DNA from: Candidatus Aminicenantales bacterium
Lineage (GTDB): Bacteria; Acidobacteriota; Aminicenantia; Aminicenantales; Saccharicenantaceae
Assembly (NCBI GenBank): GCA_041736225.1
Contig: JBGSUG010000018.1
Location: forward strand, 1-46,428
Direction: 5' to 3'
Length of the DNA: 46,428 nucleotides
Part shown: positions 2 through 42,449 of the stretch, piece after piece
Layout: each line of letters opens with the position of its first letter
Numbering within the stretch: the stretch's first letter is position 1
Translations under genes and position numbers: made by a program
Notes under the pieces: model-generated
Seen by the model: only the letters and a program-made list of their open reading frames with translations
Told to the model about the DNA's origin: nothing
Database searches by the model: none

Positions 2-1654
2 GGGAAGGCCCTGATCGACCGGGCCATCGACGCCGCATACGCTTCCGGCGTTCGCGATTTCGTCGTGGTGACGGGCTACGCGGGCGAGGCGGTCGAGCGC
101 CACCTGGCCGCCAAGACCGCCGCGGACGGCCTCTCCATCGCGACCGTTCGAAACGACGAGTGGGAAAAAGAGAACGGGCTTTCGGTCTCCAAGGCCGCGG
201 GCCTGGCCGGCGACCGGTTCTTCCTGATGATGGCCGATCACATCGTCGACCCCAGGCTGCTCGACGGATTGGGCGGCTGCGAGATCGGTGGGGATGAGGT
301 CATCCTGGCTGTCGACACCCGGATCGAGGGCCATCCCCACGTCGACCTCGACGACGTGACCCGGGTCCGCGAAGAGGACGGGCGGATCGACGCCATCGGG
401 AAGAACATCTCCGACGGCAACGCCTTCGACACAGGTGTCTTCCTGTGCACGCCCGCGCTGTTCGAGGGGCTCGCGGAAAGCCAGCGGCAGGGGGATTTCA
501 CCCTCTCCGGCGGTATCCGGGTCCTGGCGGCGAAGGGAAAAGCCAGGACTTGGGGGATCGGCGACCATTTCTGGATCGACGTCGATGACGAAGCCGCGCT
601 GCGGAAAGCAGAGGCGGCCATTGCCGGGGGCCTGGCCGGCCGCCCGCCCGAGGCGGGTTCTTCCCGCTCGGTCTGGAGGCCGTCCCGGCTGCTCCTGGGC
701 GGCGCGGGATTTCTCCTCTTGGCCTATCTCATTCTGAAGATCGGCCTGGGGACGGTCTTGGCCCAATTGGCCCGGTTCGGCCCGTGGTTTTTAGCCACCA
801 TCGCCATTGCCTTCGCCTGGCTCTTCGTCCAGGCCTGCGCCTGGGGCCTGGTCCAGGCCGCCCACTTCCGGCCGGCGCCGTTGCTGCGCCTCTTCCGGGC
901 CAAGATCATCAGCGACTCTCTCAACGCGCTCATCCCCTCGGCCAGCGTTGGAGGCGATGCCGCCCGGGCCTTCCTCATCCGGCGGGACGTGCCTTTGACG
1001 GAAGGCATCCCCGGCGTCCTGGTCGACAAGACGATCGAGTTCTCCTCCGGGGTGCTGTTCCTCGTGACCGGCTTCCTCCTCAGCCTGATTTCCGTCGACC
1101 TGCCCCGGTGGATGAACGTCGCGGCGGCGATCTGCCTCGGCGGGTCGATCGTCGGCGTCGTCCTCCTTGTCCTGTTCCAGCGCAAGGGGGCTTTCTGGGC
1201 GCTGGGCCGCATCGCCAGGATCGTTCCCAGGGTGGGCCTGTTCGCCGTCCGGAAGGAGGCCGGCATCCGCCGGCTCGACGGGAACCTCCGGCTCGTCTAC
1301 GCGAACATCAACGCCCGGACGGCGCTGGCAGCGCTCCTGCACTACGTGTCCCGCTTCCTCGGGGCGGCCGAGATCTTCGTCATCCTGAGGGTCCTCGGAA
1401 CGCCCGCGACGTTCCTGCAGACCGTCTTCATCGCCGCCGGGGTCACCATCGTCAACACGGCCTTCTTCGTCGTCCCGGGTCACGTCGGCGTCATGGAGAG
1501 CGCCCATGTCGTCATCCTCCAGAGCCTGGGCTTCGGCGCGGGGCTGGGCCTCGGCCTGGGCGTCATCCGCAGGCTCCGGAAGTTGGCCACGATGGCGGTC
1601 GGCCTCATCCTGTTCTCGCTGGAAAATGGGAGAAAACGAAAGAGGGGAACATGA
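2..1654 (+). CDS. Fusion protein, 5-prime end cut by the window. N-terminal sugar/alcohol-phosphate nucleotidyltransferase (IPCT/LicC/GlmU-like NTP-transferase fold). C-terminal multi-pass UPF0104 / lysyl-phosphatidylglycerol-synthase-type (flippase-like) membrane domain.
   Basis: The frame is open from nt 2: GKALIDRAIDAAYASGVRDFVVVTGYAGEAVE precedes the tracked start at 65, so the gene starts upstream of the window. N-domain motifs: FVVVTGY, EWEKENGLSVS, FLMMADHI, AFDTGVF, HFWIDVDDEAALRKAE. From about aa 205 there are multiple hydrophobic helices and FRAKIISDSLNALIPSASVGGDAARAFLIRR, typical of the LPG_synthase_TM/UPF0104 family. Stop TGA 1652-1654 overlaps the next ATG. Confidence 0.8.
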   Translation, partial: GKALIDRAIDAAYASGVRDFVVVTGYAGEAVERHLAAKTAADGLSIATVRNDEWEKENGLSVSKAAGLAGDRFFLMMADHIVDPRLLDGLGGCEIGGDEVILAVDTRIEGHPHVDLDDVTRVREEDGRIDAIGKNISDGNAFDTGVFLCTPALFEGLAESQRQGDFTLSGGIRVLAAKGKARTWGIGDHFWIDVDDEAALRKAEAAIAGGLAGRPPEAGSSRSVWRPSRLLLGGAGFLLLAYLILKIGLGTVLAQLARFGPWFLATIAIAFAWLFVQACAWGLVQAAHFRPAPLLRLFRAKIISDSLNALIPSASVGGDAARAFLIRRDVPLTEGIPGVLVDKTIEFSSGVLFLVTGFLLSLISVDLPRWMNVAAAICLGGSIVGVVLLVLFQRKGAFWALGRIARIVPRVGLFAVRKEAGIRRLDGNLRLVYANINARTALAALLHYVSRFLGAAEIFVILRVLGTPATFLQTVFIAAGVTIVNTAFFVVPGHVGVMESAHVVILQSLGFGAGLGLGLGVIRRLRKLATMAVGLILFSLENGRKRKRGT

Positions 1655-3186
1655 AGATTTCCGATCGGTCGATCATCGAAGATCGTGACACGACGGAGAT
1701 TTCGGCTAACATCGACGGATTCCGTCTATGGTACCGGGTCCCGCGATCGTACGCCGTCACGGATTCGGCCGACCCATTCGTCGCGGCGGCCCTGCTCCCA
1801 GCCATGAGGCTGGGGCGAAAGATAGAGATCGACCCGAGTTTGTCCGTGTCCCCAGAACTGCTGGACAACCTTCGAACCCTTCAGGAGATCCACCACACCT
1901 GGAATCCCCTGCTCAAGATCGTCCCCATAGAAACGAGCACCTCTCCGAGCCGGGCCCTTCACAACGGCGTCATGTCGTTTTTCTCGGGCGGGGTCGACAG
2001 CCTGTATACGTTCTTCAAGCGCCAGGAGGAGCTGACGCATCTCGTCTTCATCCAGGGCTTCGATTTCTTCGCGGAGAGCGGGAATTCCGGGGCCCTGACC
2101 GTGGCGGACCTGACGGACCTGTCACAGCTTGCTTTCAAGCTCCTATCGCCGGGGAACGCGGTCTCGGCGTTTCTGAAATCCCGGCTTTCGCAGAAGATCC
2201 TGTCGGACCTGGCCGACTACCGGCTATCGGGGGCGGTTCCGGAGGGCTTGGAAGAGGCCCTGGCCGGGGATCTGAACAGGGTCCTCACGGGAGGCTCGAT
2301 CTGGCAGCACCGGCGTTTCGCCGGGATCACTCTCCGCCCGGACACGCTGGCGCTTTTGAAGGCGGGGCCGCAAACCGAAGACACGATCCAGCTGAATCGG
2401 CGCCTCATCGAAGACGCCTTTCCTCTGGAGATATCGCGTCGGCGCGGCCGGTCCTTCGAGACGGCCGTCGACCGGAACACCAGGTTCGTCGAAGGCGCCG
2501 GGAAGACCCTGATCCCGATGGCGACGAATTACTTCTCCTTTGGCTACCGCTACAATTTGAGCCGGACCCTGACGCAGGGAAATTCCCTGGCGTGCATCGC
2601 CCTGATCCTGGGGTTCCCGCGCGTGTATATCCCGGCTGCCTATTCCTACGGTCAGCTCATCCCGCTGGGGTCCCACCCCTTGACCGACCCCCTGTGGTCG
2701 AACGGGAGCGTTCGGATCGTTCATGACGGGGCCGAAGTCCGTAGGGTGGAAAAGGTCGTGAAGATCGCCCGGAACGGGGATGCTTTGGCGAATCTAAGGG
2801 TCTGTTTCACCGACATGAACGTCAATTGCGGCCGGTGCTCCAAATGCCTGCGGACGATGATCCCCCTCGCCCTGCTCGACGTTCAGGCGGCCCCCTTTCC
2901 CCCTCTGCCCTCACCCGAAAAGCTGAGCCGGATGCGCCTCGCCAACGAGAACGAGCGGAAATATTTCAGGGAGAATTTCGACCCGGCCCTGGGCGTAGCG
3001 CATCCGGAGCTCAGGCGCGCTTTGAGAACCGTCCTAAGGCGGTACGAGCGGCGCCGGCTTATGGAAGACATCGACGCGCAGCTTCTCGGGGGCCTGATCA
3101 AGAAGGCCTACCGACGGATGGCCCGGCCCGGCGAGGAGCGCCACGTCCGGATCGATACGACGCCGCCGGGCCGACGGCCTCTATGA
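1651..3186 (+). CDS. PP-loop (adenine nucleotide alpha-hydrolase superfamily) ATP-pyrophosphatase-like protein of unknown specificity
   Basis: ATG 1651 lies in the frame of the tracked 784..3186 ORF, whose upstream part overlaps gene 1 and is R/P/G-rich junk. SGGVDS PP-loop at nt 1984-2001 (MSFFSGGVDSLYTF). C-terminal NCGRCSKCLRT Cys cluster (Cys codons at 2827, 2836, 2845) resembles the QueC-type CxxCxxC. ATGA overlap with the upstream stop. Confidence 0.75.
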   Translation: MKISDRSIIEDRDTTEISANIDGFRLWYRVPRSYAVTDSADPFVAAALLPAMRLGRKIEIDPSLSVSPELLDNLRTLQEIHHTWNPLLKIVPIETSTSPSRALHNGVMSFFSGGVDSLYTFFKRQEELTHLVFIQGFDFFAESGNSGALTVADLTDLSQLAFKLLSPGNAVSAFLKSRLSQKILSDLADYRLSGAVPEGLEEALAGDLNRVLTGGSIWQHRRFAGITLRPDTLALLKAGPQTEDTIQLNRRLIEDAFPLEISRRRGRSFETAVDRNTRFVEGAGKTLIPMATNYFSFGYRYNLSRTLTQGNSLACIALILGFPRVYIPAAYSYGQLIPLGSHPLTDPLWSNGSVRIVHDGAEVRRVEKVVKIARNGDALANLRVCFTDMNVNCGRCSKCLRTMIPLALLDVQAAPFPPLPSPEKLSRMRLANENERKYFRENFDPALGVAHPELRRALRTVLRRYERRRLMEDIDAQLLGGLIKKAYRRMARPGEERHVRIDTTPPGRRPL

Positions 3187-4425
3187 GCGATCCGTCGGGC
3201 CCCCCAGATCGGCGTAGAGCCTTCGTTGATGCCGGTTCACCAGGAGATCCTCGTCGCCGAACGCCCGGAGGACATCGACGCTTTTGAGCAAGGGCCCCGC
3301 GACCTGTTCGTTGAAGGTGAGATCGGCCGCTCCGTTGATCTCGATGAGGACCGGCTCCCCGGCCTGATCGAGCGCCAGGTCCAGGCCGAGCAGGCGATAG
3401 AAGGGAAAAGCCCTTTGAACATCCGCGGCGAAGGCGGAGAGACGGTCCCACTCCGGGACAGGGCGATCTTCGAAGACGACCCCGGTCGTCGGATGCGCCG
3501 GATACGCGCGGGATCGTTTGTCGTAGGCGAATTTCTTCAGCCTGCCCCCGCGGCAATCGATGCCGACACCGATGCCGCCCGCGCTCCAATTGTCGATGAT
3601 GGCGCCGCCGATGCCGGCCCGCAGCGCGGCGCTGACGATCAGGATATCTCCGTGCCCCGTCAGCATGGTCAGGATGCGGACCGTATTGACCGAGGCGTCC
3701 GAAAATAAGGCCATCCGGCCGTCCTGACGCACGACCTCCTGGACGACTGCCTTTTCTGTAAGGACGAAATCCTCGAGCTCACGGAGGCCCGTGCCCGACC
3801 TGATGCGGATGCGCCGATCCGTCCTCTCCGCCAGGACGATATTCCGTCCCATTTCTCCGAACTGAGGCTTGATGATCACCGCGCCGGCCGCGGAGGCCCG
3901 GAGCCAGGTTTCGATCCGGGCCCGGTAATCGCCGGCGGGATCGATGACGCCGTAGATCAGGGGCGTTCGGATCCCCAGGGCCTTGCAGAGCAGGCCGCAC
4001 AGGTATTTGTCGTTGAAAAGAACGCGGTAGGCCGCCGGCTGGACGGCCTTTCTCAATCGCTTCTGTTGATGGGGATGGTAGTTCGACCCGTAATAATATT
4101 TCCAATCTCCCCGGTCGACCTCCCACAAGCGATAGCGTTCGTAGTGGTCCGGAAAGGTCCTGTACGAGAAAAACAAAACGAGGAGATCGCCGGCCGTCCG
4201 CCATCCGGGGCTCCGCATATCGTTTCGGGACCTGAGACTCGCATAGCAGGGCATCAGCATGAAAAACTGTTTGAGGCGTTCGTAGCGTAGACGCACGCCG
4301 GAGAAGAGACGTTTTTTCAGTTTCCGGTATGTGCCCAGAGATCCGCCCGGCGCAGGCTTCACCGGGGCGGGATCTTTTCTCTCACTCACACGGCCAGGGT
4401 ATCGCGCGTCCCTGAAGGGTGTCAA
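3181..4425 (-). CDS. ATP-grasp ligase, sugar-transfer-associated ATP-grasp (ATPgrasp_ST)-like
   Basis: FNDKYLCGLLCKALGIRTPLIYG, AVIIKPQFGEMGRNIVL and FYRLLGLDLALDQAGEPVLIEINGAADL (E-x-N Mg-ATP region) fit an ATP-grasp fold. Start uncertain: TTG 4425 as tracked, GTG 4392 is an alternative, and neither has a clear SD. The 3-prime end overlaps the convergent PP-loop gene by 6 nt. Confidence 0.75.
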   Translation of the reverse strand: MTPFRDARYPGRVSERKDPAPVKPAPGGSLGTYRKLKKRLFSGVRLRYERLKQFFMLMPCYASLRSRNDMRSPGWRTAGDLLVLFFSYRTFPDHYERYRLWEVDRGDWKYYYGSNYHPHQQKRLRKAVQPAAYRVLFNDKYLCGLLCKALGIRTPLIYGVIDPAGDYRARIETWLRASAAGAVIIKPQFGEMGRNIVLAERTDRRIRIRSGTGLRELEDFVLTEKAVVQEVVRQDGRMALFSDASVNTVRILTMLTGHGDILIVSAALRAGIGGAIIDNWSAGGIGVGIDCRGGRLKKFAYDKRSRAYPAHPTTGVVFEDRPVPEWDRLSAFAADVQRAFPFYRLLGLDLALDQAGEPVLIEINGAADLTFNEQVAGPLLKSVDVLRAFGDEDLLVNRHQRRLYADLGGPTDRS

Positions 4426-4553: not shown

Positions 4554-5633
4554 ATGGAAGATAAGACTGCGGCCGGCGGGGACAGGACCGGGGCGGGATT
4601 CCCGCTCGCGGGGCCTGACGAGGCCATTCTAGTGACGGGATCGGGCGGTTTCATCGGGGCCCGCGTCGTCGACTCGTTGCTCCGCCGGGGCTTCCGGAAC
4701 ATCCGTTGCTTCGTGCGTCCCGGGAGCGGCAATCCGCTCCTGATGGCCGTTCTGAAGGAGCACTCGGGGCACCGGTGCGAGATCTTCCCCGGGAACCTGC
4801 TCTCGCGCGACGACTGCGCGAAGGCGGCTGCCGGCGTTTCCGTCGTCTATCACCTGGTGGCCGGACGCGGGAAATCTTTCCCCGGCTGCTTCCAGGGATC
4901 GGTCGTCACGACGCGCAACCTGCTGGACGCCGTCGTCGCGGGGAAAGGCCTCAAGCGCTTCGTGAACGTCAGTTCCTTCATCATCTATTCCAATCGGAGA
5001 TTGGCCCAGAATGCGGTCTGGGACGAATCGTGCCCGCTCGAGGACGACCTCGAAAAGCGTTTCGACGCCTATCTTTACGGCAAGTTCAAGCAGGACGAGA
5101 TCGTCCGGGCGTATCACGAGAAATTCGGCGTCCCTTATACCATCGTCTGCCCGGGCATCGTCTTCGGCCCGGGCCGGAAAGCCCTGCCGGGTTCCCTGGG
5201 GCTGGACACGTTCGGCATCTTCATGCGGATCGGCGGGGCCGGCCGGATGCCGCTGACCTACGTGGACAATTGCGCCGACGCGATCGTCCTGGCGGGGCTC
5301 GTTCCGGGCGTCGAGGGAGAGCTCTTCAACGTCATGGACGATCGCTTGCCCAAGAGCCGGAGCTTCCTGAGAAAGTACAAAAAGCGGGTGGGTCGATTCC
5401 GGTCCCTATGGGTCCCTTATCCGCTCACCTACCTGCTCTGCTGGTTTTGGGAGCGATATGCCGCCTGGTCGAAGGGGCAGCTGCCTCCGGTATTCAATCG
5501 CCGCAATTGTGCCTTCTCCTGGAAGGGACACCGCTATTCCAACAGCAAGCTCAAGGACCTCCTCGGCTGGGAATGCCGGGTACCCATGAAGGATGCCCTG
5601 GACCTCTATTTCAGGTATCAGAAAGATGAGTGA
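4554..5633 (+). CDS. NAD(P)-dependent epimerase/dehydratase family protein (extended SDR)
   Basis: Rossmann motif ILVTGSGGFIGARVV near the N-terminus and YxxxK (YLYGKFK). Typical length of 359 aa. Confidence 0.85.
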   Translation: MEDKTAAGGDRTGAGFPLAGPDEAILVTGSGGFIGARVVDSLLRRGFRNIRCFVRPGSGNPLLMAVLKEHSGHRCEIFPGNLLSRDDCAKAAAGVSVVYHLVAGRGKSFPGCFQGSVVTTRNLLDAVVAGKGLKRFVNVSSFIIYSNRRLAQNAVWDESCPLEDDLEKRFDAYLYGKFKQDEIVRAYHEKFGVPYTIVCPGIVFGPGRKALPGSLGLDTFGIFMRIGGAGRMPLTYVDNCADAIVLAGLVPGVEGELFNVMDDRLPKSRSFLRKYKKRVGRFRSLWVPYPLTYLLCWFWERYAAWSKGQLPPVFNRRNCAFSWKGHRYSNSKLKDLLGWECRVPMKDALDLYFRYQKDE

Positions 5634-6744
5634 TCCAAACAAGACGCGGATAGCGATCGTCGGTTGCGGGAATATCGCGGACCAGCATGCTTCCCAGATA
5701 AAGCTGCTGCCGGGCTGCGAGCTCGTCGCCGCTTGCGACACGGATGAGCTGATGGCGGGCCAGCTCGCCGACCGCTTCCATGTTCCCCATATCTTCACGG
5801 ATGCGGGGCGGATGCTCCGGGAAGCCAAGCCGGACGCGGTCCACATCACCACCCCGGCCCAATCGCATTTCCCGCTCGGCCGGATGTGCCTCGAAGCGGG
5901 CTGCCACGTCTACATGGAAAAGCCGTTCGCGGAAACGGCGACCGAGACCGGGGCCCTGCTCCGTCTCGCCCGGGAGAAGAAACGGCGGATCACGGTCGGA
6001 CACAATCTGCAGTTCAATCCCGAGGCCGTTCGTATGCGGGAGCTCGTCCGGTCCGGATTCCTCGGCGGACCGCCCATCCACATGGAAGTGGTCCAATGCT
6101 ATTCCCACGACGATCCCACCTACGGCCGGATCGTGTTGGCGGATCCGAACCACTGGGTCCGCCGCCTGCCCGGCTCGCTGTCCCAGAATCTGATCAGTCA
6201 CGGTATCAGCAAGCTCGCCGAGTTCCTGACCGGGGATGATCCCCGGATCATCTCCCTGAGCTTCAGCAGCCCCTATCTGAGGGGCCTGGGGCTCATTGAT
6301 GTCGTGGACGAGGTCCGCGCGACCATCCAGGACGAGCGGGGGACGACCGCGTTCTTCCTCTTCACCACGCTGTTCGGCGTCGGCAACAACGAGCTGCGCC
6401 TGTACGGAAAGTCGGCGAACCTGGTGCTGGACAATACGAACCGGACCGTCCTCCGCGTCCTGCCTTCGAACTACAAGAGCTATATGCGTTACTTTTTCGC
6501 ACCCTGGACGGACGCCCGGGAGCAGTTGAGGAACTCGTCCCGCAACATGAGGCTCTTTGCCAGGAACGATTTCCATATGGACTACGGCATGAAAAAGCTG
6601 ATGGGGCTTTTCTACGCCGCCGTGCGGGAGGACGGGCCCGATCCCATCCCGGCCGATCAGATCCTGAGGACGGCCAGGATCATGGAGACGATCTTCAGGC
6701 AGATGCCGGGCTCCCGCGTCCCGGACGAGCCGGCGATCCCTTGA
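5626..6744 (+). CDS. Gfo/Idh/MocA family sugar oxidoreductase
   Basis: MSDPNKTRIAIVGCGNIADQH (Rossmann) and MEKPFAET (EKP motif). ATG 5626 is preferred over tracked 5593 because it puts the Rossmann motif at the N-terminus and gives an 8-nt overlap with the upstream stop. Confidence 0.85.
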   Translation: MSDPNKTRIAIVGCGNIADQHASQIKLLPGCELVAACDTDELMAGQLADRFHVPHIFTDAGRMLREAKPDAVHITTPAQSHFPLGRMCLEAGCHVYMEKPFAETATETGALLRLAREKKRRITVGHNLQFNPEAVRMRELVRSGFLGGPPIHMEVVQCYSHDDPTYGRIVLADPNHWVRRLPGSLSQNLISHGISKLAEFLTGDDPRIISLSFSSPYLRGLGLIDVVDEVRATIQDERGTTAFFLFTTLFGVGNNELRLYGKSANLVLDNTNRTVLRVLPSNYKSYMRYFFAPWTDAREQLRNSSRNMRLFARNDFHMDYGMKKLMGLFYAAVREDGPDPIPADQILRTARIMETIFRQMPGSRVPDEPAIP

Positions 6745-10936: not shown

Positions 10937-11033
10937 CGTATCCTTCGTTCCTTGGCGCATTTCGAATCCAACGGGACGATTCTCCAATAATCGCCGGGGG
11001 AAGGGGTCACCCTTTTAGGGGATTGCCGCGAGC

Positions 11034-12922: not shown

Positions 12923-13017
12923 CTCGAAAACAGCGCGGGGCTTGAGACCGTCCCGTATCCGTGGTCTCGTTGACGTCGATGGGGAGCTGGTCGCCAATGT
13001 CGCCCTGAGGGACATCC

Positions 13018-13932: not shown

Positions 13933-13949
13933 GGCGTTCCTCCGGGCCC

Positions 13950-13978
13950 AGTATAGCGAACAATTCGTGGCAGGACAA
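13950..13978 (-). promoter_or_regulatory. Candidate sigma70-type promoter for GT2 13932 (minus strand)
   Basis: On the minus strand: TTGTCC (13978-13973), 17-nt spacer, TATACT (13955-13950). It sits 17 nt upstream of ATG 13932. Confidence 0.4.
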
Positions 13979-14017
13979 AGCGAATTCTTCCGCCCCGCCG
14001 GCCGCCGGGAGAGGCAG

Positions 14018-14046: not shown

Positions 14047-14106
14047 GATTTTCCCGATTGCCCCCGGCCGGCCGGGAGGCGCGCCGGACGGAGAGAGGAG
14101 AACGCG

Positions 14107-15279: not shown

Positions 15280-15285
15280 ACTATC

Positions 15286-35828: not shown

Positions 35829-35989
35829 AAGGCTGTATCTCGACCTTTCTCAAAAAAATTTAGTCGCCGAAACAGCAAATTCGACATAACTCGCGTGAAT
35901 AAATTAGCCCAACGGGTCTGGAATTACAAGTGACCATGTGTTTTGGTGTATCGATATTGAACAGTGTTTCCTTTATGAGTTGCCGCGGA

Positions 35990-35998
35990 TGGTATGAT
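35990..35998 (+). promoter_or_regulatory. Candidate extended -10 promoter (TGnTATGAT) for the glycoside-hydrolase gene
   Basis: TGGTATGAT at 35990-35998. ATG 36008 follows 9 nt after the hexamer, implying a leaderless or near-leaderless mRNA. No good -35 element. Confidence 0.3.
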
Positions 35999-36007
35999 AG
36001 ACGGGAG

Positions 36008-37372
36008 ATGGAAGGATCGAGACACGGTCTTCGAATGTTCTGGGCTGTCCTCAGTTTGTCCTTGCTCGCCGCGGCTTGCGGCGTCGGCGGGGGAGGGGCC
36101 GGCGATTCGGCCTACCCGCTGAAAGTCGGCCCCGGCGGTCGCTACCTGGCCGATCAGCAGGGGAACCCCTTCTTGATCATCGGGGACGCCCCCCAGGCGC
36201 TTATGGTCAACGCCTCGGTCGGCGAAGCGGAGTTCCTGCTGGCCAACCGGGCCTCCCACGGCTTCAATACCGTCTGGATCATGCTCATCTGCAACGCTTA
36301 TTCGGGAGGCCGGGCCGATGCCAGCACCTTTGACGGCCTCACGCCGTTCACGGCCGCCAACGACCTCTCCACTCCCCGCGAGGCCTATTTCGCCCGATGC
36401 GACGCGGTCATCCGGGCCGCCGCGGATCAAGGCCTCAACGTCATTCTCGATCCCGTCGATACGGGGGGGTTCATGCCGGTCCTGCGGCAGAACGGGCTCG
36501 AAAAGTGCCGGACATACGGCCGCTATCTCGGAGATCGCTACAAGGACTTCGACAACATCATCTGGATGTCGGGGAGCGACTTCCAGAGCTGGCGAACGGC
36601 CTCTGATAACGCTCTGGTCAAGGCCGTCGCCGACGGCATTCGGGAAACGGACTCCCGGCACATCCACACGCTCCAACTCGACTACTTCGTCAGCAGCTCA
36701 CTCGATAACAGCGCCTGGTCGGGCCTGGTCACGCTCAATGCCGCCTATACCTACTATCCGGCCTACGCGGAGGTCCTCGAGGGATACAACCGTGCCCCGG
36801 CCGTCCCGGTTTTCCTGATCGAATCCGATTACGAGGGAGAGAACGGCGCCGATGCGGAACGGCTCCGTCGGCAGGAATACTGGACGCTGCTATCGGGGGC
36901 TTGCGGGCATGTCTTCGGAAACGCCTTCGTCTGGCCGCTTATGACGGGTTGGGAGGACAATCTCGATACGCCGGGGGTCCTCCAGTTCGGCCATTGCCGG
37001 GCCCTGTTCGCATCGCGGCCCTGGCATTCCCTCGTTCCGGACCAAACCCATATGCTGGTGACCGCCGGGTACGGTTCGTTCTGGTCGGGCGGGGTGCCGA
37101 GTTCCGGCATCAGCCAGAACGACTATGTCGCGGCAGCCTCCACGCCCGACGGGAAACTCGCGATCGTCTACATCCCCACGTCGCGGACTATCGCGGTCGA
37201 CCTGGCCCGTTTGTCCGGCAGCGTGTCAGCCCGCTGGTACGATCCGACGACGGGGGCCGCCCAATCGATCTCCGGTTCTCCCTTCCCGAACGTCGGCCCC
37301 CGGAACTTCACGACCCCCGGCCTACACGCCGACGGAGCGGGGGACTGGGTGCTGATCCTCGAATCGCTCTGA
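36008..37372 (+). CDS. DUF4038 / GH140-like glycoside hydrolase with C-terminal collagenase-type beta-sandwich; lipoprotein-like signal
   Basis: MFWAVLSLSLLAAAC is lipobox-like. GNPFLIIGDAPQAL, SHGFNTVWIML, AADQGLNVILDP and DNIIWMSGSDF fit the (beta/alpha)8 DUF4038 pattern. C-terminal ARWYDPTTGA...GDWVLILE. Start uncertain: ATG 36008, or ATG 36035, or GTG 35930. Confidence 0.7.
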   Translation: MEGSRHGLRMFWAVLSLSLLAAACGVGGGGAGDSAYPLKVGPGGRYLADQQGNPFLIIGDAPQALMVNASVGEAEFLLANRASHGFNTVWIMLICNAYSGGRADASTFDGLTPFTAANDLSTPREAYFARCDAVIRAAADQGLNVILDPVDTGGFMPVLRQNGLEKCRTYGRYLGDRYKDFDNIIWMSGSDFQSWRTASDNALVKAVADGIRETDSRHIHTLQLDYFVSSSLDNSAWSGLVTLNAAYTYYPAYAEVLEGYNRAPAVPVFLIESDYEGENGADAERLRRQEYWTLLSGACGHVFGNAFVWPLMTGWEDNLDTPGVLQFGHCRALFASRPWHSLVPDQTHMLVTAGYGSFWSGGVPSSGISQNDYVAAASTPDGKLAIVYIPTSRTIAVDLARLSGSVSARWYDPTTGAAQSISGSPFPNVGPRNFTTPGLHADGAGDWVLILESL

Positions 37373-37436: not shown

Positions 37437-38477
37437 ATGGCCAAGTGCATGATCCCGGGCGCCGCCATCAAAGGCATCGTCTCGGCAGTCCCATCGCGTC
37501 GCTTCGATAATTTCGAAGACACGTCCGGCTTCACCGCGGAAGAGGTCCGCAAGGTCGTCGGCATGGCCGGCGTCAAGAGCCGTAGACTGGCCGGCGAATC
37601 CGTCTGCAGCAGCGATCTCTGCCAGGCCGCGGCCGAATCGCTCCTGGAGAGGGTCGGATGGGAGCGGGATTCCGTCGACGCCCTGATCATGGTCACCCAG
37701 TCGCCCGACTATCTTCTGCCCTCGACGGCCTGCCTTTTGCAGGCCAAGCTGCGCCTGCCGACATCCTGCGCCGCGTTCGACGTCGGCCTGGGCTGTTCGG
37801 GTTATCCCTACGGGCTTTATCTCGGGGCGCTCATGATCTCCCACGGGGGTATCCGCAGAGCCCTGGTGCTGCACGGAGAGACCCCGGCCCGTTTCGCCGA
37901 CGAGAGCGACCGCTCCGTTTCGCTGTTGTTCGGCGATGCCGGGTCGGCAACAGCGCTGGAGGCGGACCCGCTCGGGAACCCCTCACCTTGGGCCTTCGTT
38001 CTTCACACGGACGGCAGCGGGTATGAAGACCTCATCATCCCCGGCGGGGGCTTCCGGGAGCGGTTCCCCGAAGACCGGCGGAGGCACTACGTCTCGATGA
38101 ACGGGCCCAACATCTTCAGCTTTTCGATCAAGCGGGTCCCGGCGGTGATCCAGGACACCTTGGCCCTCGCCGGAACGACTAAAGAGGATGTGGACTATTA
38201 CATCCTCCATCAATCCAATCAGTTCATCATGAAGCATCTCGCCAAGAAGCTGGGTATCCCCGAGGGGAAGATGCCGCTGACCTTGGGGGATTTCGGCAAT
38301 ACAGGCGGGCCCTCGGTGCCGCTCACCGTGACCCGGGCCGGCCTGGTCAGGCCGCCCGACCGTCCACTGACCCTGATGCTTGTCGGCTACGGAGTCGGGT
38401 TGTCGTGGGGATCCGCCTTGGTCGGCCTGGCCCCGGATGCCGCGCTCGGCCACGTTGAGCTCGAGAACCGGGATTGA
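37437..38477 (+). CDS. 3-oxoacyl-ACP synthase III (FabH-like KAS III)
   Basis: The Cys-His-Asn triad is recognisable: AFDVGLGCSGYPYGL, YILHQSNQFIMKH and GDFGNTGGPSVPL. Confidence 0.85.
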   Translation: MAKCMIPGAAIKGIVSAVPSRRFDNFEDTSGFTAEEVRKVVGMAGVKSRRLAGESVCSSDLCQAAAESLLERVGWERDSVDALIMVTQSPDYLLPSTACLLQAKLRLPTSCAAFDVGLGCSGYPYGLYLGALMISHGGIRRALVLHGETPARFADESDRSVSLLFGDAGSATALEADPLGNPSPWAFVLHTDGSGYEDLIIPGGGFRERFPEDRRRHYVSMNGPNIFSFSIKRVPAVIQDTLALAGTTKEDVDYYILHQSNQFIMKHLAKKLGIPEGKMPLTLGDFGNTGGPSVPLTVTRAGLVRPPDRPLTLMLVGYGVGLSWGSALVGLAPDAALGHVELENRD

Positions 38478-38525
38478 ATGGACCGGCCCGGCCGGATCTA
38501 TTAGCGATGAGGAGCGCCTGAGAAA

Positions 38526-38774
38526 TTGACCAAGGCTACCGACGAGATCCTGGCTTGGGTCGCCGAGATCTTCGAGACCCCTTTGGAGAAGATCCGTCTC
38601 GAAACGAAAAGGGAGGACATCGAGGCCTGGGACTCTCTCGGGATCCTGACCTTGATCGCCCGAATGGACGAAGACTTCCACATACTCCTGACGGATGAGG
38701 AGATACAGCGGCTGAGATCCGTCGGGGACATCGTCGACTTTCTCAACCAACGCGACGAGAACCCCGGCCCTTAA
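38526..38774 (+). CDS. Acyl carrier protein (dedicated, non-housekeeping type)
   Basis: 82 aa and acidic, with the phosphopantetheine attachment motif AWDSLGILTLI. TTG start as tracked (uncertain). Confidence 0.75.
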   Translation: MTKATDEILAWVAEIFETPLEKIRLETKREDIEAWDSLGILTLIARMDEDFHILLTDEEIQRLRSVGDIVDFLNQRDENPGP

Positions 38775-38778
38775 GACC

Positions 38779-39252
38779 ATGCGCTTCCTGTTCGTCGACC
38801 GCATCCTCAGGCTCGAACCGGGAAGATCCATCGAAGCGGAACGCGTCTTTCCCGGCGATCTGGATTTTTTCCGCGACCATTTCCCCGGCTTCCCGGTCGT
38901 ACCCGGAGTCCTGCTGACGGAGATGATGGGCCAGGCGGCAGCCATGTGCCTGAACGCCGAGATTCCGGAGAAGGCGCGGGGCCGGGCCGTCCTGGCCCAG
39001 ATCCGTTCGGCGTCCTTCCGGGACTGGGTCAAGCCGGACGAAAAGATCTCGATCAAGGCGGAGATCCGGACGAGCCGCCCGGAATTGGCGACGGCCGTCT
39101 GTTCGGCCGAGGTCCGGGGGAGCAAAGTCTCGACCGCCGACCTCCTTTTTACCTTTTTACCGAAGGAACGGACCTCTCCGGACGACCGCGACGAGGTCCT
39201 GGAATCCTTTCTGGCTTCCTCAGGCCGGGTGAAAGACGGGCCCCATGGATAA
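38779..39252 (+). CDS. FabZ/FabA-like hotdog-fold 3-hydroxyacyl-ACP dehydratase
   Basis: FFRDHFPGFPVVPGVLLTEMMGQAA carries the catalytic His and Glu context of FabZ. Confidence 0.8.
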   Translation: MRFLFVDRILRLEPGRSIEAERVFPGDLDFFRDHFPGFPVVPGVLLTEMMGQAAAMCLNAEIPEKARGRAVLAQIRSASFRDWVKPDEKISIKAEIRTSRPELATAVCSAEVRGSKVSTADLLFTFLPKERTSPDDRDEVLESFLASSGRVKDGPHG

Positions 39253-40009
39253 GACGTTCGGCCTCGAAGGCAAGAACTTTCTGATCGCCGGCGGGACGCG
39301 GGGCATCGGGCGGGCCATTTCGCTGCAGTTCGCCCGGTCCGGCGCGCGAGTCGTCGCCAACTATGTTCGGGACGAGCAGGCGGCCCAGGCCCTCCTGGCG
39401 GAAGCCGCGCGGGAAGCCTTGGGCCTGACCGTTTGCCGGGCCGATCTGACGAGCGCCAAAGGCCTGGCCAAGCTGGATAAAGAGGTCGAAACCGCGCTGA
39501 CCGATCTCTCCGGCCTGGTCTTCTGCGCGGCCACGGGCGTTCACCGTTCCTTCGAAGGCATGACCGACCGTCACTTCGACTGGACTTTTTCGCTGAATGT
39601 CAGGGCTTTCTTCGACCTGGCATTGCTTTTGCTCCCGAGATTCCGCGAGTCTGCCTCCATCGTTGTCCTGTCTTCCCAGGGCGCACGCCAGGTCGTGCCT
39701 TCGTATTCGCTGGTCGGCGCCTCCAAGGCGGCTTTGGAATCGCTGGCCCGGCACATGGCCGTGGAGCTGGCGCCTCGCGGTATCCGGGTCAACATCCTGT
39801 CGCCCGGCGCTGTCCGAACGGGGGCCTGGTCCGCGATGCCCGACGGGGAGGCCAGACTGGCGGGAGCGGCAAGAAGGTCGCCGCTCGAAAGACTGACTTC
39901 TCCGGAGGAGGCGGCTTTAGCCGCGCAATTCCTCTGCTCGGATGCCGCCCGGGGTATCGTCGGGCATACGCTCGTCGTCGACGGCGGCATGAGCCTCATT
40001 GGGGAGTAG
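39245..40009 (+). CDS. Short-chain dehydrogenase/reductase (FabG-like 3-oxoacyl-ACP reductase)
   Basis: FLIAGGTRGIGRAI, VLSSQG, YSLVGASKAALE (Y-x-K) and NILSPGAVRT. 8-nt overlap with the upstream gene. Confidence 0.85.
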   Translation: MDKTFGLEGKNFLIAGGTRGIGRAISLQFARSGARVVANYVRDEQAAQALLAEAAREALGLTVCRADLTSAKGLAKLDKEVETALTDLSGLVFCAATGVHRSFEGMTDRHFDWTFSLNVRAFFDLALLLLPRFRESASIVVLSSQGARQVVPSYSLVGASKAALESLARHMAVELAPRGIRVNILSPGAVRTGAWSAMPDGEARLAGAARRSPLERLTSPEEAALAAQFLCSDAARGIVGHTLVVDGGMSLIGE

Positions 40010-40010
40010 G

Positions 40011-41138
40011 ATGCTCATCCCGAAACCTCGCTTTCCCGTCAGGCAGATGCTCCTCATGGGCTGGCTGCCGGGTTTCCTGAAAAAGGCCCTTTACCGGCTC
40101 AAGGGCTACCGGATCGGCAAAAGAGTCTCCATCGGCTTCGGATCAGTCGTGATCGGCGAAGAGGTCTCCATAGGGGATCACGCTTCGATCGGCTTCCTGT
40201 CTTTCGTTCGCGGCCGGCGGATCCGGATCGGAGATCATGTCCAGATCGGGGCGACCACGTTCATCGACACTCCCCACTTCGAGATCGGCGACGGCAGCAA
40301 GATCAACGAACAGGTCTTCGTCGGAGGCCTCCAATTCCCGGATTCCCGGCTTATCATCGGCCGGAACTGCCAGATCATGCAGATGTCCTTCATCAATCCG
40401 GCCCGGTCCATCACGATCGGGGACGACAGCGGCATCGGCGGGGACTGCCTCCTCTTCGGTCACACCTCTTGGCTAAGCCAGCTCGAGGGGTACAACGTGG
40501 ACTTTCAGCCCATCGAGATCGGCAACAGCGTGTCGTTGTCCTGGCGCGTCTTCGTCCTGCCGGGGGCCAAGATCGGGGATGGGGCCGTGATCGGGGCCAA
40601 CTCCCTCGTCAATCACGTCATTCCGCCGAAGTGCCTGGCCGTCGGCTTCCCGGCCAGGGTCGTGAGCAAATTCCCCGATTTCCCGAGGGATCTTTCGATC
40701 GGAGAAAAGGCGGGCCTTTTCGATGACATGATCAGGGAGATGATCGCCTACTTCCGGAATTCGGGACTGGCCTGCGAGGGGACGGGGCCCGGATACGTCG
40801 TTTTCAAGGCGGGCAGGCACGGCTTGAAGCGCTCCCGGAAATGGCGCCTTCTCGCGGCCGCGGCGCCCGTCGCGGGAGCATCCTGCGACCTGCCGTCAGG
40901 GGATGTCGACGTCCTGGTGAGCTTCGGCCGGATCGCACCTGACGAAAGGCGGAGACTCGACGAGAGCGGAACGGTCTGGTTCGACGTCGATGTCAAGGAA
41001 CAGGCTTTCGCGACCAACGACCTGGCGGAGGACGTGGCCCTCTTCCTCCGGCGCTACGGCATCCGGTTCTTTCGTGACAAGGGAGGACCGCCGGCCCGCC
41101 GAACGGATGGCGCTCCCAAGCCCGTCCATAAGAGATGA
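40011..41138 (+). CDS. Left-handed beta-helix (hexapeptide-repeat) acyltransferase with an uncharacterised C-terminal extension of about 170 aa
   Basis: Successive hexapeptide repeats: IGKRVSIGFGSVVIGEEVSIGDHASIG, IRIGDHVQIG, ITIGDDSGIGGDCLL and AKIGDGAVIGANSLV. ATG 40011 follows the stop at 40007-40009 and a GGGGAG SD, and is preferred over TTG 39999. Confidence 0.8.
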   Translation: MLIPKPRFPVRQMLLMGWLPGFLKKALYRLKGYRIGKRVSIGFGSVVIGEEVSIGDHASIGFLSFVRGRRIRIGDHVQIGATTFIDTPHFEIGDGSKINEQVFVGGLQFPDSRLIIGRNCQIMQMSFINPARSITIGDDSGIGGDCLLFGHTSWLSQLEGYNVDFQPIEIGNSVSLSWRVFVLPGAKIGDGAVIGANSLVNHVIPPKCLAVGFPARVVSKFPDFPRDLSIGEKAGLFDDMIREMIAYFRNSGLACEGTGPGYVVFKAGRHGLKRSRKWRLLAAAAPVAGASCDLPSGDVDVLVSFGRIAPDERRRLDESGTVWFDVDVKEQAFATNDLAEDVALFLRRYGIRFFRDKGGPPARRTDGAPKPVHKR

Positions 41139-41141: not shown

Positions 41142-42449
41142 ATGAAGTTCGATAACTCGCTCAAAATACAAAAGCGGTTCCGGGCCATCGTTCCCGGCGG
41201 GTGCCACACCTACGCGAAAGGGGACGACCAGTATCCCCAGCCCATGCCCGTCTATATCGCTAGGGGCAAGGGATCCCATGTCTGGGACCTCGACGGCAAC
41301 GAATACATCGAATACGGCCAGGGCCTGCGGACGGTGACGCTGGGTCACGCATTCGAGCCCGTCGTGGAGGCCTCGTACCGTCAGATGCTGTTGGGCAGCA
41401 ACTACGTCCGGCCGGCCCGGATCGAGCTCGAGTGCGCCGAGGAATTCCTCTCGATCGTCGACGGGGCCGACATGGTCAAGTTCGGCAAGGACGGATCGGA
41501 CGCGACGAGCGGCGCGGTCAGGCTGGCCCGGGCCTACACGGGCCGGGACATGGTGGCCATCTGCGGCGATCAGCCGTTCTTCTCGGTCGACGACTGGTTT
41601 ATCGGCAGCACACCCATGTCGGCGGGCATCCCGGCCTGCACGAAGGAACTCACGGTGGGATTTCGCTACAACGATATCGCGAGCGTGAGGGAACTCTTCG
41701 GCGCGTACCCGGGGCGGATCGCCTGCGTCATCCTCGAAGCCGAAAAGTACGAGCCTCCCGCCGCGGGTTTCCTGCACGAGCTCAAGGAGCTCGCCCACGA
41801 TAACGGGGCGGTCTTCATCCTCGACGAGATGATCACCGGATTCCGGTGGCACCTCGGCGGAGCCCAAAAGAAATACGACATCGTTCCCGACCTGTCGGCG
41901 TTCGGCAAAGCCCTCGGGAACGGGTTCGCCGTCTCGGCCCTGGCCGGGAAGAGGGACATCATGGAGCTGGGCGGCCTGGACCATGCGAAAGAGAGGGTCT
42001 TCCTCCTTTCGGCGACGCACGGCGCCGAGAACCACGCCCTCGCCGCGGCCATGGCCACGATGAAGTTCTACAGGGAGAATCCCGTCGTCGAAACGCTGTA
42101 TGCACAGGGCCGGCGTCTGGCCGAAGGCGTCAATCGGGCCTCGGCGGCACTGGGCCTTGCGGATCACGTCTCCGTCATCGGCCCGGATTGCTGCTCCGTT
42201 TACACGACCCGGGACGAGGCCGGAAAGCCATCGCAGCCTTTCCGGACGCTGTTCCTGCAGGAAACCATGAAACGCGGCCTCCTGATGCCCTCGAGCATCG
42301 TCTCCTACGCCCATTCCGACGCGGACATCGATCAGACGATCGACAGGATCTCCGAAGCCCTCGTCGTCTATAGGAAAGCCCTCGACGAAGGGATCGGGAA
42401 ATACCTCGACGGGGCGCCTGTCAAGCCCGTTTTCCGTAAATTCAATTAG
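41142..42449 (+). CDS. Class-III PLP aminotransferase, glutamate-1-semialdehyde 2,1-aminomutase-like
   Basis: GGCHTYAKG, IARGKGSHVWDLDGNEYIEY, FILDEMITGFR and DLSAFGKALGNGFAVSALAG (PLP lysine). Confidence 0.85.
   Translation: MKFDNSLKIQKRFRAIVPGGCHTYAKGDDQYPQPMPVYIARGKGSHVWDLDGNEYIEYGQGLRTVTLGHAFEPVVEASYRQMLLGSNYVRPARIELECAEEFLSIVDGADMVKFGKDGSDATSGAVRLARAYTGRDMVAICGDQPFFSVDDWFIGSTPMSAGIPACTKELTVGFRYNDIASVRELFGAYPGRIACVILEAEKYEPPAAGFLHELKELAHDNGAVFILDEMITGFRWHLGGAQKKYDIVPDLSAFGKALGNGFAVSALAGKRDIMELGGLDHAKERVFLLSATHGAENHALAAAMATMKFYRENPVVETLYAQGRRLAEGVNRASAALGLADHVSVIGPDCCSVYTTRDEAGKPSQPFRTLFLQETMKRGLLMPSSIVSYAHSDADIDQTIDRISEALVVYRKALDEGIGKYLDGAPVKPVFRKFN

Follow-up and report, generated by a model that had tools for sequence, protein, structure and literature searches.

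The DNA analysed here, called the window below, is a stretch of 46,428 nucleotides from a Candidatus Aminicenantales bacterium (GenBank assembly GCA_041736225.1, contig JBGSUG010000018.1). We consider it probable that the window represents one lineage-conserved island of Candidatus Aminicenantes (Acidobacteriota), built from cassettes, for a surface heteropolysaccharide (O-antigen, capsule or exopolysaccharide, EPS) that is assembled by the Wzx/Wzy route. The most economical reading of the predicted enzymes is a glycan that would carry non-acetyl acyl or aminoacyl substituents. We view the locus as a tailoring-rich polysaccharide cluster from a lineage that is uncultured. Of most interest in it is a triad of an enolase-like (ENO-like) gene, a histidine phosphatase gene and a ligase gene, followed by a family of proteins with a PP-loop motif.

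Genes are numbered g01 to g36 from left to right, and related loci carry L numbers. The 76.6-kb metagenome contig Ga0480577_000332 shares the gene order of the window between the ENO-like and the Kelch gene, over about 45 kb, and those proteins that were compared directly are 68–78% identical in amino acids. The order on this contig is ENO-like, phosphatase, TupA, AlaDh-like, GT2, Wzx, GT2, Wzy, short-chain dehydrogenase/reductase (SDR), C-methyltransferase, RmlC, DUF4910, nucleotidyltransferase, PIG-L, MBOAT, unknown, DegT, FemAB, GT2, g25, g26, 2-epimerase, CE4/DUF354, hydrolase, FabH, acyl carrier protein (ACP), FabZ, FabG and left-handed beta-helix acyltransferase (LbH), then a group of peptidase, outer membrane protein, long g02, DUF362 and short g02, and finally class-III aminotransferase and Kelch. 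Because of this collinearity the island is regarded as conserved as a unit; conserved synteny, which an earlier sequence-only reading of this DNA had named as a check, is found for g10 to g36. In addition, g03 to g19 are collinear, with 57–96% amino acid identity, in L002, L006–L008 and L056, and g20 to g35 are collinear in the metagenome contigs L060, L061, L063 and L084. The island is one conserved unit of exchangeable cassettes, with insertions and swaps at the level of cassettes. Among species-representative genomes, the best matches for the ENO-like gene were metagenome-assembled genomes (MAGs) of Candidatus Aminicenantes (79–91% identity). The close relatives are all MAGs or metagenome contigs, and no syntenic locus was tied to a solved glycan in a literature search over open-access papers, which makes this weak evidence. 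In that search the locus stays unmatched to a characterised glycan, as in the earlier reading. A search for Aminicenantes glycans in open-access papers gave nothing directly relevant.

Gene calling was guided by the G+C content of third codon positions (GC3), by which coding genes were told from shadow open reading frames (ORFs). It gave 36 genes between 2 and 42449, where 39 proteins had been counted before, and three further genes to the right; every coordinate named previously holds. Two genes were absent from the earlier list, the RmlC-like gene (24030–24560) and the histidine phosphatase gene (15286–15912). One candidate was rejected: the ORF of 916 aa at 13018–15768 on the minus strand is a shadow ORF by GC3 beyond about 13950, and only its 3′ third, which encodes a GT2 glycosyltransferase, is coding. 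It passes in antisense direction through the genes for the enolase-like protein and the phosphatase, and its remainder is a high-GC shadow. The G+C content is 58–66% across 2-kb windows, and neither tRNA genes nor Rfam families were found in the window. Annotation with hidden Markov models (HMMs) from Pfam and NCBIfam bore out most families of the sequence-only reading. The ordinary polysaccharide genes are present (two GT2, one GT4, Wzx at 18903–20258, Wzy_C at 20255–21625), as are the three ATP-grasp ligases (ATPgrasp_ST at 3181–4425, ATPgrasp_TupA at 15934–16830 and 16827–17762), the FemAB-like transferase at 29386–30375 (FemAB and Acetyltransf_6), the two aminotransferases (DegT at 28179–29384, Aminotran_3 at 41142–42449), the FabH-ACP-FabZ-FabG-LbH series at 37437–41138 and the atypical enolase at 14107–15279. 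As claimed, predicted enzymes that form amides or remove N-acetyl groups are unusually numerous in this glycan locus.

The genes for assembly and processing, with the flanking genes g01 and g36, are the following.

2–1654, plus strand: g01, sugar/inositol-1-phosphate nucleotidyltransferase with HpnL/LPG_synthase_TM membrane domain, 5′ end cut by the window (LPG_synthase_TM 3e-23, NTP_transf_3).
6749–7879, plus strand: g06, GT4 glycosyltransferase (Glyco_trans_1_4 4e-24).
7928–10987, minus strand: g07, large and probably secreted protein that combines five PKD domains with a beta-helix at its C-terminus, a candidate for binding or processing glycans (PKD_4 4e-77).
11204–13015, minus strand: g08, beta-helix protein, pectate-lyase-like (no Pfam match of its own; syntenic homologues match PF22842, Pel9A-like_beta_helix).
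13018–13932, minus strand: g09, GT2 glycosyltransferase (PF00535 2e-16; extent by GC3 profile).
17909–18883, plus strand: g14, GT2 glycosyltransferase (PF00535 1e-25).
18903–20258, minus strand: g15, Wzx-type flippase (Polysacc_synt_3 2e-18, above cut-off).
20255–21625, minus strand: g16, membrane protein of the Wzy_C family, either a polymerase or, possibly, a ligase (PF04932 3e-11, 43.8 bits, cut-off 31.7).
35930–37372, plus strand: g29, apiosidase-like (GH140-type) glycoside hydrolase with collagen-binding-2 domain (PF13204 1e-48, PF12904 3e-13).
42674–44140, plus strand: g36, Kelch-repeat beta-propeller (Kelch families; Kelch follows the aminotransferase on Ga0480577_000332 as well).

A homologue of g07 carries Pel9A-like_beta_helix. 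The sequence to the right of 42449 (42674–46426) encodes, besides the Kelch protein, an oxidoreductase of the Gfo/Idh/MocA type and part of a 4Fe-4S protein. In NCBIfam, g01 matches HpnL (2e-31) and, with its N-terminal half, IPCT/DIPPS (6e-22), by which it resembles inositol-1-phosphate cytidylyltransferase; its relatives encode 583 aa and adjoin Inos-1-P synthase and CDP-OH_P_transf genes. Upstream of the g01 homologue (L056 5232–10004, and L057) lie genes for an S-adenosylmethionine (SAM) methyltransferase, a CDP-alcohol phosphatidyltransferase and myo-inositol-1-phosphate synthase, then for a metallopeptidase and a phage-type integrase. The left flank in relatives suggests an inositol-phosphate module together with an island boundary, and it is probably at g01 that the island ends on its left side.

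The neighbourhood of g01 is one of the points that could favour a patchwork of functionally separate neighbouring pathways, instead of one glycan pathway. Its parts might be, at the left edge, a module for an inositol phospholipid or a solute, then a CDP-sugar cassette for lipopolysaccharide, an EPS module and an acyl-ACP lipid module. Eleven strand switches between g01 and g29–g36 would fit such an arrangement, as would the presence of a single Wzx and a single Wzy for a very large tailoring set. Several parts also occur by themselves: the seven-gene CDP-sugar cassette stands alone in Neorhizobium, the ENO-like/phosphatase pair is found in many unrelated contexts, and the block g24–g28 occurs without the remainder. 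Against this, the relative with 68–78% identical proteins keeps the order over about 45 kb, the g02-type genes move but stay inside the island, and nearly all genes belong to glycan-related families, with no housekeeping genes interspersed. We therefore hold the patchwork to be unlikely, and a single island for one surface glycan remains our preferred view.

The block g23–g28 combines sugar-modifying genes with predicted deacetylases and the FemAB-like gene.

28179–29384, minus strand: g23, DegT/DnrJ/EryC1 sugar aminotransferase (PF01041 2e-42).
29386–30375, minus strand: g24, FemAB-like (GNAT-fold) transferase (PF02388 2e-12, 47 bits, cut-off 24; PF13480 2e-7).
30376–31431, minus strand: g25, CE4-fold (NodB-type) deacetylase-like protein, no Pfam model (AlphaFold and Foldseek).
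31428–32687, minus strand: g26, conserved protein, possibly an (alpha/alpha)6 barrel (sub-threshold GlcNAc_2-epim, Pec_lyase and GH88).
32609–33745, minus strand: g27, UDP-N-acetylglucosamine 2-epimerase (PF02350 6e-101).
33777–35828, minus strand: g28, CE4-like N-terminal domain and DUF354 (GT-B-like) C-terminal domain (DUF354 5e-32).

Two or three deacetylases had been proposed for the locus. The PIG-L protein at 26689–27342 (g21, see below) was recovered by its family, and a CE4 fold was predicted for 30376–31431; the N-terminus of 33777–35828 gave weak CE4 matches. For g25, no HMM matched the sequence, and only structure prediction resolved the fold. Its AlphaFold model (33 homologues, pLDDT 77) matched the CE4 structures 3rxz, 3qbu, HP0310, PuuE and ArnD in Foldseek with E values of about 1e-7 and a probability of 1.0, and nearly all of the 44 PDB matches with E ≤1e-3 were CE4-type or related deacetylases. 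Residues D9, E11, H83 and H85 of g25 are invariant and may include the Asp-His-His metal triad of CE4 enzymes. The matches of the N-terminal part of g28 (about 300 residues) were to PDB 3rxz (E 0.0024) and Polysacc_deac_1 (E 0.033). That g25 and this domain are paralogues was considered and dropped, as BLASTP was not significant. The CE4-like domain is fused to DUF354 in Aminicenantes-type loci and is a separate gene elsewhere.

The order g28-g27-g26-g25 is kept in ten metagenome contigs (48–86% identity), six of which also carry g24; g26 always lies between g25 and g27 in relatives, and the block usually continues into g24 and g23. Stand-alone CE4-like genes of the g28 N-domain type have a FemAB-like neighbour in at least nine EPS loci that are unrelated and contain Wzc, Bac_transf, GT4 and DegT as well. 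A gene of 346 aa beside these stand-alone genes was at first taken for a split DUF354, which was wrong: it is FemAB-like. Deacetylase-type genes of the CE4-like kind stand directly beside FemAB-like genes in L092, L094, L098, L105, L118, L130 and L133, and in L141 (160–2039) a YdjC-type deacetylase gene adjoins another FemAB gene. The recurrent pair of deacetylase and FemAB-like genes is consistent with deacetylation followed by aminoacylation. The PDB matches of g24 are weak (E 1e-3 to 9e-3) and solely to FemA, FemX and an aminoacyl-tRNA-dependent peptide synthase; the best NCBIfam model is TIGR03019 (PEP-CTERM FemAB), with 32.9 bits and a cut-off of 260. The EPS loci of the PEP-CTERM/XrtA type likewise combine FemAB-like and CE4-type deacetylase genes with a private carrier protein. 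They differ from the window, in which g24 is far under the TIGR03019 cut-off and exosortase (no Pfam family match) and PEP-CTERM-specific markers are absent, and they use an acyl-CoA ligase where the window has FabH, FabG, FabZ and LbH. In mycothiol and bacillithiol synthesis, the PIG-L deacetylase MshB or BshB acts first, and an ATP-dependent ligase then acts on the freed glucosamine amine. Compared with these pathways and with ArnD, the order of steps would be the same, de-N-acetylation or deformylation and then re-acylation of the amine, and PIG-L and CE4 folds occur here too. Those systems, in contrast, yield small thiols or modified lipid A and not a repeat-unit polysaccharide, and their ligase families differ.

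Further to the right, five genes form the ACP cassette.

37437–38477, plus strand: g30, FabH-type ketoacyl-ACP synthase III (ACP_syn_III domains; NF006829 225 bits; Cys-His-Asn triad).
38526–38774, plus strand: g31, acyl carrier protein (PP-binding 5e-5; DSL motif; 82-aa call on a 99%-identical contig).
38779–39252, plus strand: g32, FabA/FabZ-type dehydratase (PF07977 8e-16).
39245–40009, plus strand: g33, FabG-type ketoacyl-ACP reductase (adh_short_C2 2e-58).
39999–41138, plus strand: g34, left-handed beta-helix acyltransferase (Hexapep 5e-13).

Neither the window nor the syntenic cassettes contain an enoyl reductase or an elongating ketosynthase, so the product would be a short acyl group of the C4 type or would depend on housekeeping fatty acid synthesis; a C4-type group is most likely. 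The use of acyl-ACP by g34 is suggested by adjacency only. In the window, L060, L063 and L084, the genes FabH-ACP-FabZ-FabG-LbH occupy the slot that lies between g35 and g28; in L061 (3948–9555), two g02-type genes with the PP-loop motif take their place. On Ga0480577_000332, a pair of g02 genes lies between LbH and the aminotransferase. We read the ACP cassette and the g02-type genes as possible alternative ways to derivatise the same position. A search for characterised glycan cassettes with FabH, ACP and the g35-type aminotransferase in open-access papers found nothing directly relevant.

These five genes could instead build or acylate a lipid anchor (lipid-A-like, or a glycolipid primer) and not a short N-acyl decoration. 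In favour of an anchor, g34 has sub-threshold similarity to LpxD (45–48 bits, cut-offs 207–242) and LpxA; against it, g34 scores equally well or better with O-acetyltransferases such as WbbJ (also sub-threshold) and WcaF. Private ACP and FabG genes occur in glycosylation islands, and islands with fatty-acid genes were proposed to make a lipo-sugar (PMC7874193), which would speak for an anchor. Without FabB/FabF and an enoyl reductase, however, long chains would need the housekeeping synthase, and the swap of the whole cassette for PP-loop-motif genes in L061 argues for an exchangeable decoration and not for an essential anchor. A lipid anchor thus appears improbable to us, and the short acyl decoration is retained below.

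The aminotransferase gene that follows the ACP cassette leads back to the sugar-precursor genes, listed here together with the neighbouring g22.

4554–5633, plus strand: g04, extended SDR NAD-dependent epimerase/dehydratase (PF01370 2e-20).
5626–6744, plus strand: g05, Gfo/Idh/MocA sugar oxidoreductase (PF01408 3e-26; start from the 371-aa length of relatives).
21749–22798, plus strand: g17, NDP-sugar epimerase/dehydratase of the SDR type, with which the CDP-sugar cassette begins (PF01370 2e-34).
22783–24033, plus strand: g18, NDP-hexose C-methyltransferase (Methyltransf_14 1e-67, Methyltransf_13 9e-26).
24030–24560, plus strand: g18b, RmlC-type 3,5-epimerase, a cupin (dTDP_sugar_isom 6e-64; rmlC equivalog 172.6 bits, cut-off 155.75; start placed by an ATGA start/stop overlap).
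24574–25890, plus strand: g19, DUF4910/DUF2172/HTH_47 aminopeptidase-like protein (PF16254 4e-107; start also from relatives).
25901–26692, plus strand: g20, glucose-1-phosphate cytidylyltransferase-like protein (TIGR02623 2e-63, full length, 214 bits and thus below the cut-off of 300).
26689–27342, plus strand: g21, predicted PIG-L family de-N-acetylase (PF02585 4e-13).
27575–28213, plus strand: g22, conserved protein (no significant family, Lipase_GDSL_2 at E 0.21 only; syntenic in L061 and L084).
41142–42449, plus strand: g35, class-III aminotransferase, glutamate-1-semialdehyde (GSA) aminomutase-like, PRK06209 (NF004856 725.6 bits, cut-off 486; Aminotran_3).

Counterparts of g35, g17, g19, g18b, g18, g20 and g21 are contiguous, with 38–60% identity (38% for g17, 60% for g18), on the Neorhizobium petrolearium plasmid NZ_CP123001.1 (L139, 878763–898067), beside Wzx, pyruvyl transferase and Wzc kinase genes in an EPS region. 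All seven genes of this rhizobial cassette (GSA-aminomutase-like, SDR, DUF4910, RfbC, SAM methyltransferase, glucose-1-phosphate cytidylyltransferase and PIG-L) therefore have counterparts in the window, where, in contrast, the aminotransferase gene is displaced by 14 kb and follows the ACP/LbH cassette. Because the seven genes are contiguous on the plasmid, g35 is assigned by its sequence relatives to a function with g17–g21 and not primarily with the ACP cassette. Other plasmids of rhizobia and related alphaproteobacteria have 59–63% identical matches to g35 (60% on pNGR234b of Sinorhizobium fredii NGR234). The cassette predicts a CDP-activated, C-methyl-branched amino-deoxyhexose, and g17 and g04 are extended SDRs that matched no specific equivalog when tested for 4,6-dehydratase. 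No solved product of the rhizobial cassette was found, and a search for DUF4910 in open-access papers gave nothing directly relevant.

Four genes are candidates for further amide formation.

1651–3186, plus strand: g02, PP-loop-motif protein of 507 aa, candidate ATP-dependent amidoligase or amidotransferase (FFSGGVDS motif).
3181–4425, minus strand: g03, sugar-transfer-associated ATP-grasp ligase (PF14397, ATPgrasp_ST, 1e-46).
15934–16830, minus strand: g12, predicted TupA-like ATP-grasp amidoligase (PF14305, ATPgrasp_TupA, 2e-41, 142.6 bits, cut-off 25).
16827–17762, minus strand: g13, second predicted TupA-like ATP-grasp amidoligase (PF14305 4e-37, 128.4 bits, cut-off 25).

The gene g02 had been called an orphan PP-loop ATP-pyrophosphatase. 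The motif stood, a match to a PP-loop family did not appear with HMMs, in the PDB or with Foldseek, and the gene is no orphan. Its family comprises 11,735 clusters at 50% identity (E ≤1e-3), has neither a Pfam or NCBIfam model nor a PDB relative, and recurs inside related islands. Most members are of a short form (385 aa), and the 507-aa form of the window has a helical insert of 125 residues; long and short forms are often neighbours (L061, L142, Aminicenantes RBG_19FT_COMBO_58_17). The motifs FFSGGVDS and C-x7-C-x2-C-x2-C are invariant: S112, G114 and D116 are kept in 33 aligned long-form members, and G114 and D116 in a more diverse set of 30. In the AlphaFold model (pLDDT 90), the motif lies between a strand (107–110) and a helix (115–123), as in PP-loop ATPases. 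No Pfam or NCBIfam match was obtained at permissive thresholds and no PDB match by phmmer or by two profile searches, and a scan of short paralogues was also negative. Foldseek gave nothing below E 0.09 with this model (best PP-loop match ThiI, E 0.18), and hhalign against an unverified E. coli QueC sequence aligned the 17 motif columns only (probability 8%). With QueC and the acetamidino-forming PP-loop amidotransferases of the WbuX/WbpG/PseA type, g02 shares SGGxDS after a beta-strand; it has a QueC-like cysteine cluster and, like the WbuX/WbpG/PseA type, stands in a glycan locus beside an aminotransferase gene. It differs from both in that similarity of sequence or structure does not extend beyond the 17-residue motif, and from the latter in that HisH/HisF-type partner genes are absent. 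Genes of the g02 type recur beside class-III aminotransferase genes or directly after the enolase-like/phosphatase pair, and they shift position within the island.

The three ATP-grasp calls were upheld by Pfam, as was the FemAB-like call; syntenic homologues of g03 are 73% identical. The phosphatase gene g11 is 22 bp away from the TupA gene g12. TupA-like enzymes are predicted to decorate surface glycans (PMC13419641), and the sole biochemically characterised TupA-type enzyme that we found in open-access papers is Cj1438C of C. jejuni, which joins glucuronate to serinol-phosphate or ethanolamine-phosphate before a phosphatase takes the phosphate off (PMC11800379). The glucuronamide module of the C. 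jejuni HS:2 capsule (TupA-like C-terminal part of Cj1438, phosphatase Cj1435, amine-phosphate synthesis by Cj1436 and Cj1437) is one of the closest known systems, with TupA-like genes in a polysaccharide locus beside genes for a phosphatase and a small-phosphometabolite enzyme; the shared logic would be to ligate a phosphorylated block and then strip the phosphate (PMC11800379). There are differences: the phosphatase is of the HAD type there and has the histidine-phosphatase fold here, the partner is a pyridoxal phosphate (PLP)-dependent transaminase/decarboxylase there and an enolase paralogue here, and the ligase is fused to GT2 there, whereas the window has stand-alone ligases and no glucuronate-forming gene. 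The sequence-only reading had proposed amino-acid or peptide substituents together with acyl groups. Non-acetyl acyl or aminoacyl groups would still be most economical, but because the TupA genes adjoin a phosphatase gene and an enolase-like gene, as compared with Cj1438C, a small phosphorylated building block is by analogy at least as likely for them as an amino acid or peptide. In relatives, a gene for an AlaDh_PNT-family dehydrogenase adjoins the TupA ligase gene and replaces the second TupA gene (L005/L012 13771–14901, L058 11591–12724, L141 7812–8948). This family includes alanine dehydrogenases and opine synthases, and its position beside TupA hints at an alanine-type or opine-type amine donor.

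The substrate of the ATP-grasp, FemAB-like and PP-loop-motif enzymes might also be a protein, or a small metabolite resembling a peptide, and not a polysaccharide. There are precedents, since CfmP, an ATP-grasp protein that is TupA-like, brings about a post-translational change of fimbriae that does not depend on surface polysaccharides (PMC13419641), and the FemABX proteins include aminoacyl-tRNA-dependent peptide synthases (PDB 9wqy). The window, however, contains no precursor-peptide, non-ribosomal peptide synthetase or transporter genes, these genes sit among glycosyltransferase, Wzx/Wzy and sugar-nucleotide genes in every relative, and across phyla the sets of ENO-like, phosphatase and ligase genes stand in contexts with Wzx, Wzy and glycosyltransferases. 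We consider a protein or peptide target very unlikely, and a polysaccharide is assumed as the target in the following.

The first two genes of the triad are listed here.

14107–15279, plus strand: g10, enolase-subgroup paralogue (ENO-like, 390 aa) that lacks the Glu211 acid (Enolase_C 1e-26).
15286–15912, plus strand: g11, histidine phosphatase, of the short phosphatase type and not of the dPGM type (His_Phos_1 6e-36).

With the eno equivalog of NCBIfam, g10 scores 117.4 bits (cut-off 300). Members of the ENO-like family have 390 aa (start near 14107 in the window) and are 44–94% identical to each other. Alignment to PDB enolase shows that D222, E266 and D292 (metal ligands) and K317 (the Lys345 base) are invariant, as are the equivalents of His373-Arg374-Ser375, Lys396, His159 and Glu168 in yeast enolase numbering. 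The segment DEGG with Glu211 is replaced by an invariant G186-N187-P188-V189 with no acidic residue nearby; each of the 14 members in the alignment has Asn in place of Glu211. The Ser39 loop is changed as well. The ENO-like protein thus shares with canonical enolase the two-domain fold and the residues named above, but differs from it in the change of DEGG to GNPV, in a replaced Ser39 metal-II loop, in being 40 residues shorter and at most 30% identical, in being followed by a phosphatase gene in about 40 of 50 loci, and in its setting in glycan loci. A search of plasmids with ENO-like returned canonical enolases only (≤30% identity), and a search for enolase paralogues in glycan loci in open-access papers gave nothing directly relevant. 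From these residues we infer that the enzyme would retain alpha-proton abstraction and binding of phosphate and carboxylate, and could not catalyse elimination of hydroxide; it would process a 2-phospho-acid other than 2-phosphoglycerate, or else join a non-water nucleophile to phosphoenolpyruvate (PEP).

The ENO-like gene was found at 50 loci in species-representative genomes, and in about 40 of them a gene for a histidine phosphatase of 208 aa follows a few bases downstream on the same strand. The motifs of g11 are RHAHT, SxxxRAxQTA and VVSHG, and its best NCBIfam matches are the CobC and PspA phosphatases. Carriers of the pair belong to Aminicenantes, Chloroflexota, Holophagae (the cultured Geothrix rubra and G. 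limicola), Thermoleophilia, Coriobacteriia, Dehalogenimonas, Nitrospirota, Methanoregula and Methanomassiliicoccus. In 26 of the 40 loci, an ATP-grasp or AsnB-like gene lies no more than 10 kb from the pair, and in about 12 of these 26 no more than 150 bp; in two further loci, a g02-like gene follows downstream at a distance of up to 40 bp. The gene next to the pair very often encodes a predicted amide-forming enzyme, such as TupA in Aminicenantes, Geothrix and one Clostridiales MAG, and ATPgrasp_ST or AsnB-like elsewhere. In Chloroflexota, for example, the order is Wzx, ENO, phosphatase, RimK-type ATP-grasp, GINT1_N, Wzy and GT4. In a Latescibacteria contig (L026 2286–3245), the pair is followed by a gene for a PALP-family PLP enzyme of the cysteine-synthase/SbnA type and not by a ligase gene.

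SFLD lists enolase as the family of the enolase subgroup (PMC5467563). We tentatively propose that ENO-like is the first member of this subgroup with a non-enolase function, and that it forms, together with the phosphatase, a widespread two-step pathway from PEP or a 2-phospho-acid to a small hydroxy-acid or amino-acid block, which adjacent ATP-grasp, AsnB-like or PP-loop-motif ligases would link to surface glycans by an amide bond; we regard this as possible but not as the expected outcome. One possible route would be addition of a non-water nucleophile across PEP, followed by dephosphorylation. In coenzyme M synthesis by ComA and ComB, a nucleophile is added to PEP to give a 3-substituted 2-phospho-acid, which is then dephosphorylated. 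This analogy may extend to the two-step logic of ENO-like and phosphatase, but the folds are unrelated, and nothing points to sulfite or to any particular nucleophile. That the two genes are merely spare copies of enolase and phosphoglycerate mutase that boost PEP, for instance for pyruvylation, is in our view scarcely credible: the fold and most catalytic residues of g10 are enolase-like, His_Phos_1 includes dPGM, and a pyruvyl transferase is present in one related locus (L058), but the Glu211 and Ser39 changes, the low eno score and low identity to plasmid-borne enolases, the short phosphatase type of g11, the lack of a pyruvyl transferase in the window and the association of the pair with ligases and not with pyruvyl transferases all speak against it.

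Taken as one pathway, the genes would act as follows. Precursors would be UDP-ManNAc from g27, keto and amino sugars from g04, g05 and g23, and a CDP-activated, C-methyl-branched 6-deoxy amino-hexose from g17–g21 and g35. The GT2 and GT4 enzymes would build a lipid-linked repeat unit after an initiating transferase encoded outside the window. N-acetyl groups would be removed by the PIG-L protein g21, the CE4-like g25 and the N-domain of g28, and freed or new amines, as well as any carboxylates, would be amidated by parallel systems. The FemAB-like g24 would transfer aminoacyl groups to amines, g34 would acylate with a short 3-oxo, 3-hydroxy or enoyl acyl-ACP (about C4) supplied by FabH, ACP, FabG and FabZ, and g03, g12, g13 and g02 would form further amides. 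ENO-like g10 and phosphatase g11 would supply the ligases with a small unit derived from a 2-phospho-acid, with g11 stripping the phosphate in the same way as Cj1435 of Campylobacter, which acts after its TupA-like ligase, Cj1438C. Wzx would flip the unit and Wzy would polymerise it. Trimming or binding of the polymer may fall to the hydrolase g29 and to g07 and g08, the beta-helix/PKD proteins.

Several points weigh against this view. By Pfam, the window has no initiating phosphoglycosyl transferase (Bac_transf/WecA type) and no Wzz, Wzc or Wza; some distant related loci do have a Bac_transf-type initiating transferase and a Wzc-like protein, and the initiating transferase of the island presumably lies outside the window. 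From its Wzy_C match, g16 may be a polymerase or an O-antigen ligase, as the family contains both, and g01 may serve the adjacent inositol-phosphate pathway. A UDP-sugar 6-dehydrogenase (UDPG_MGDP_dh) was not matched by Pfam in the window or in syntenic relatives, nor does the window hold a gene for uronic-acid synthesis that could supply the carboxylate partner of the ATP-grasp ligases. The PP-loop identity of g02 is at the level of a motif only. The proposed role of the ENO-like/phosphatase pair is drawn from neighbourhood and one analogy. Since cassettes recombine between relatives, some of them could serve a second glycan.

Decoration of surface glycans governs recognition by phages, predators and the immune system as well as biofilm properties, and to our knowledge nothing is known about it in phyla without cultured members such as Aminicenantes. 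The island ties large uncharacterised families, namely ENO-like, the PP-loop-motif proteins with about 11,700 clusters, the CE4-like proteins without a Pfam model, DUF354 and DUF4910, to one testable theme: an acetyl group is taken off and another group is put on. A second function inside the enolase subgroup would, if true, be new and of interest to enzymologists. Since the triad is present in cultured Geothrix and the seven-gene cassette on a Neorhizobium plasmid, both are open to experiment. If our proposal for the triad is true, it would represent an undescribed class of polysaccharide decoration; the pair of ENO-like and phosphatase genes is seen in at least eight bacterial phyla and in methanogens.

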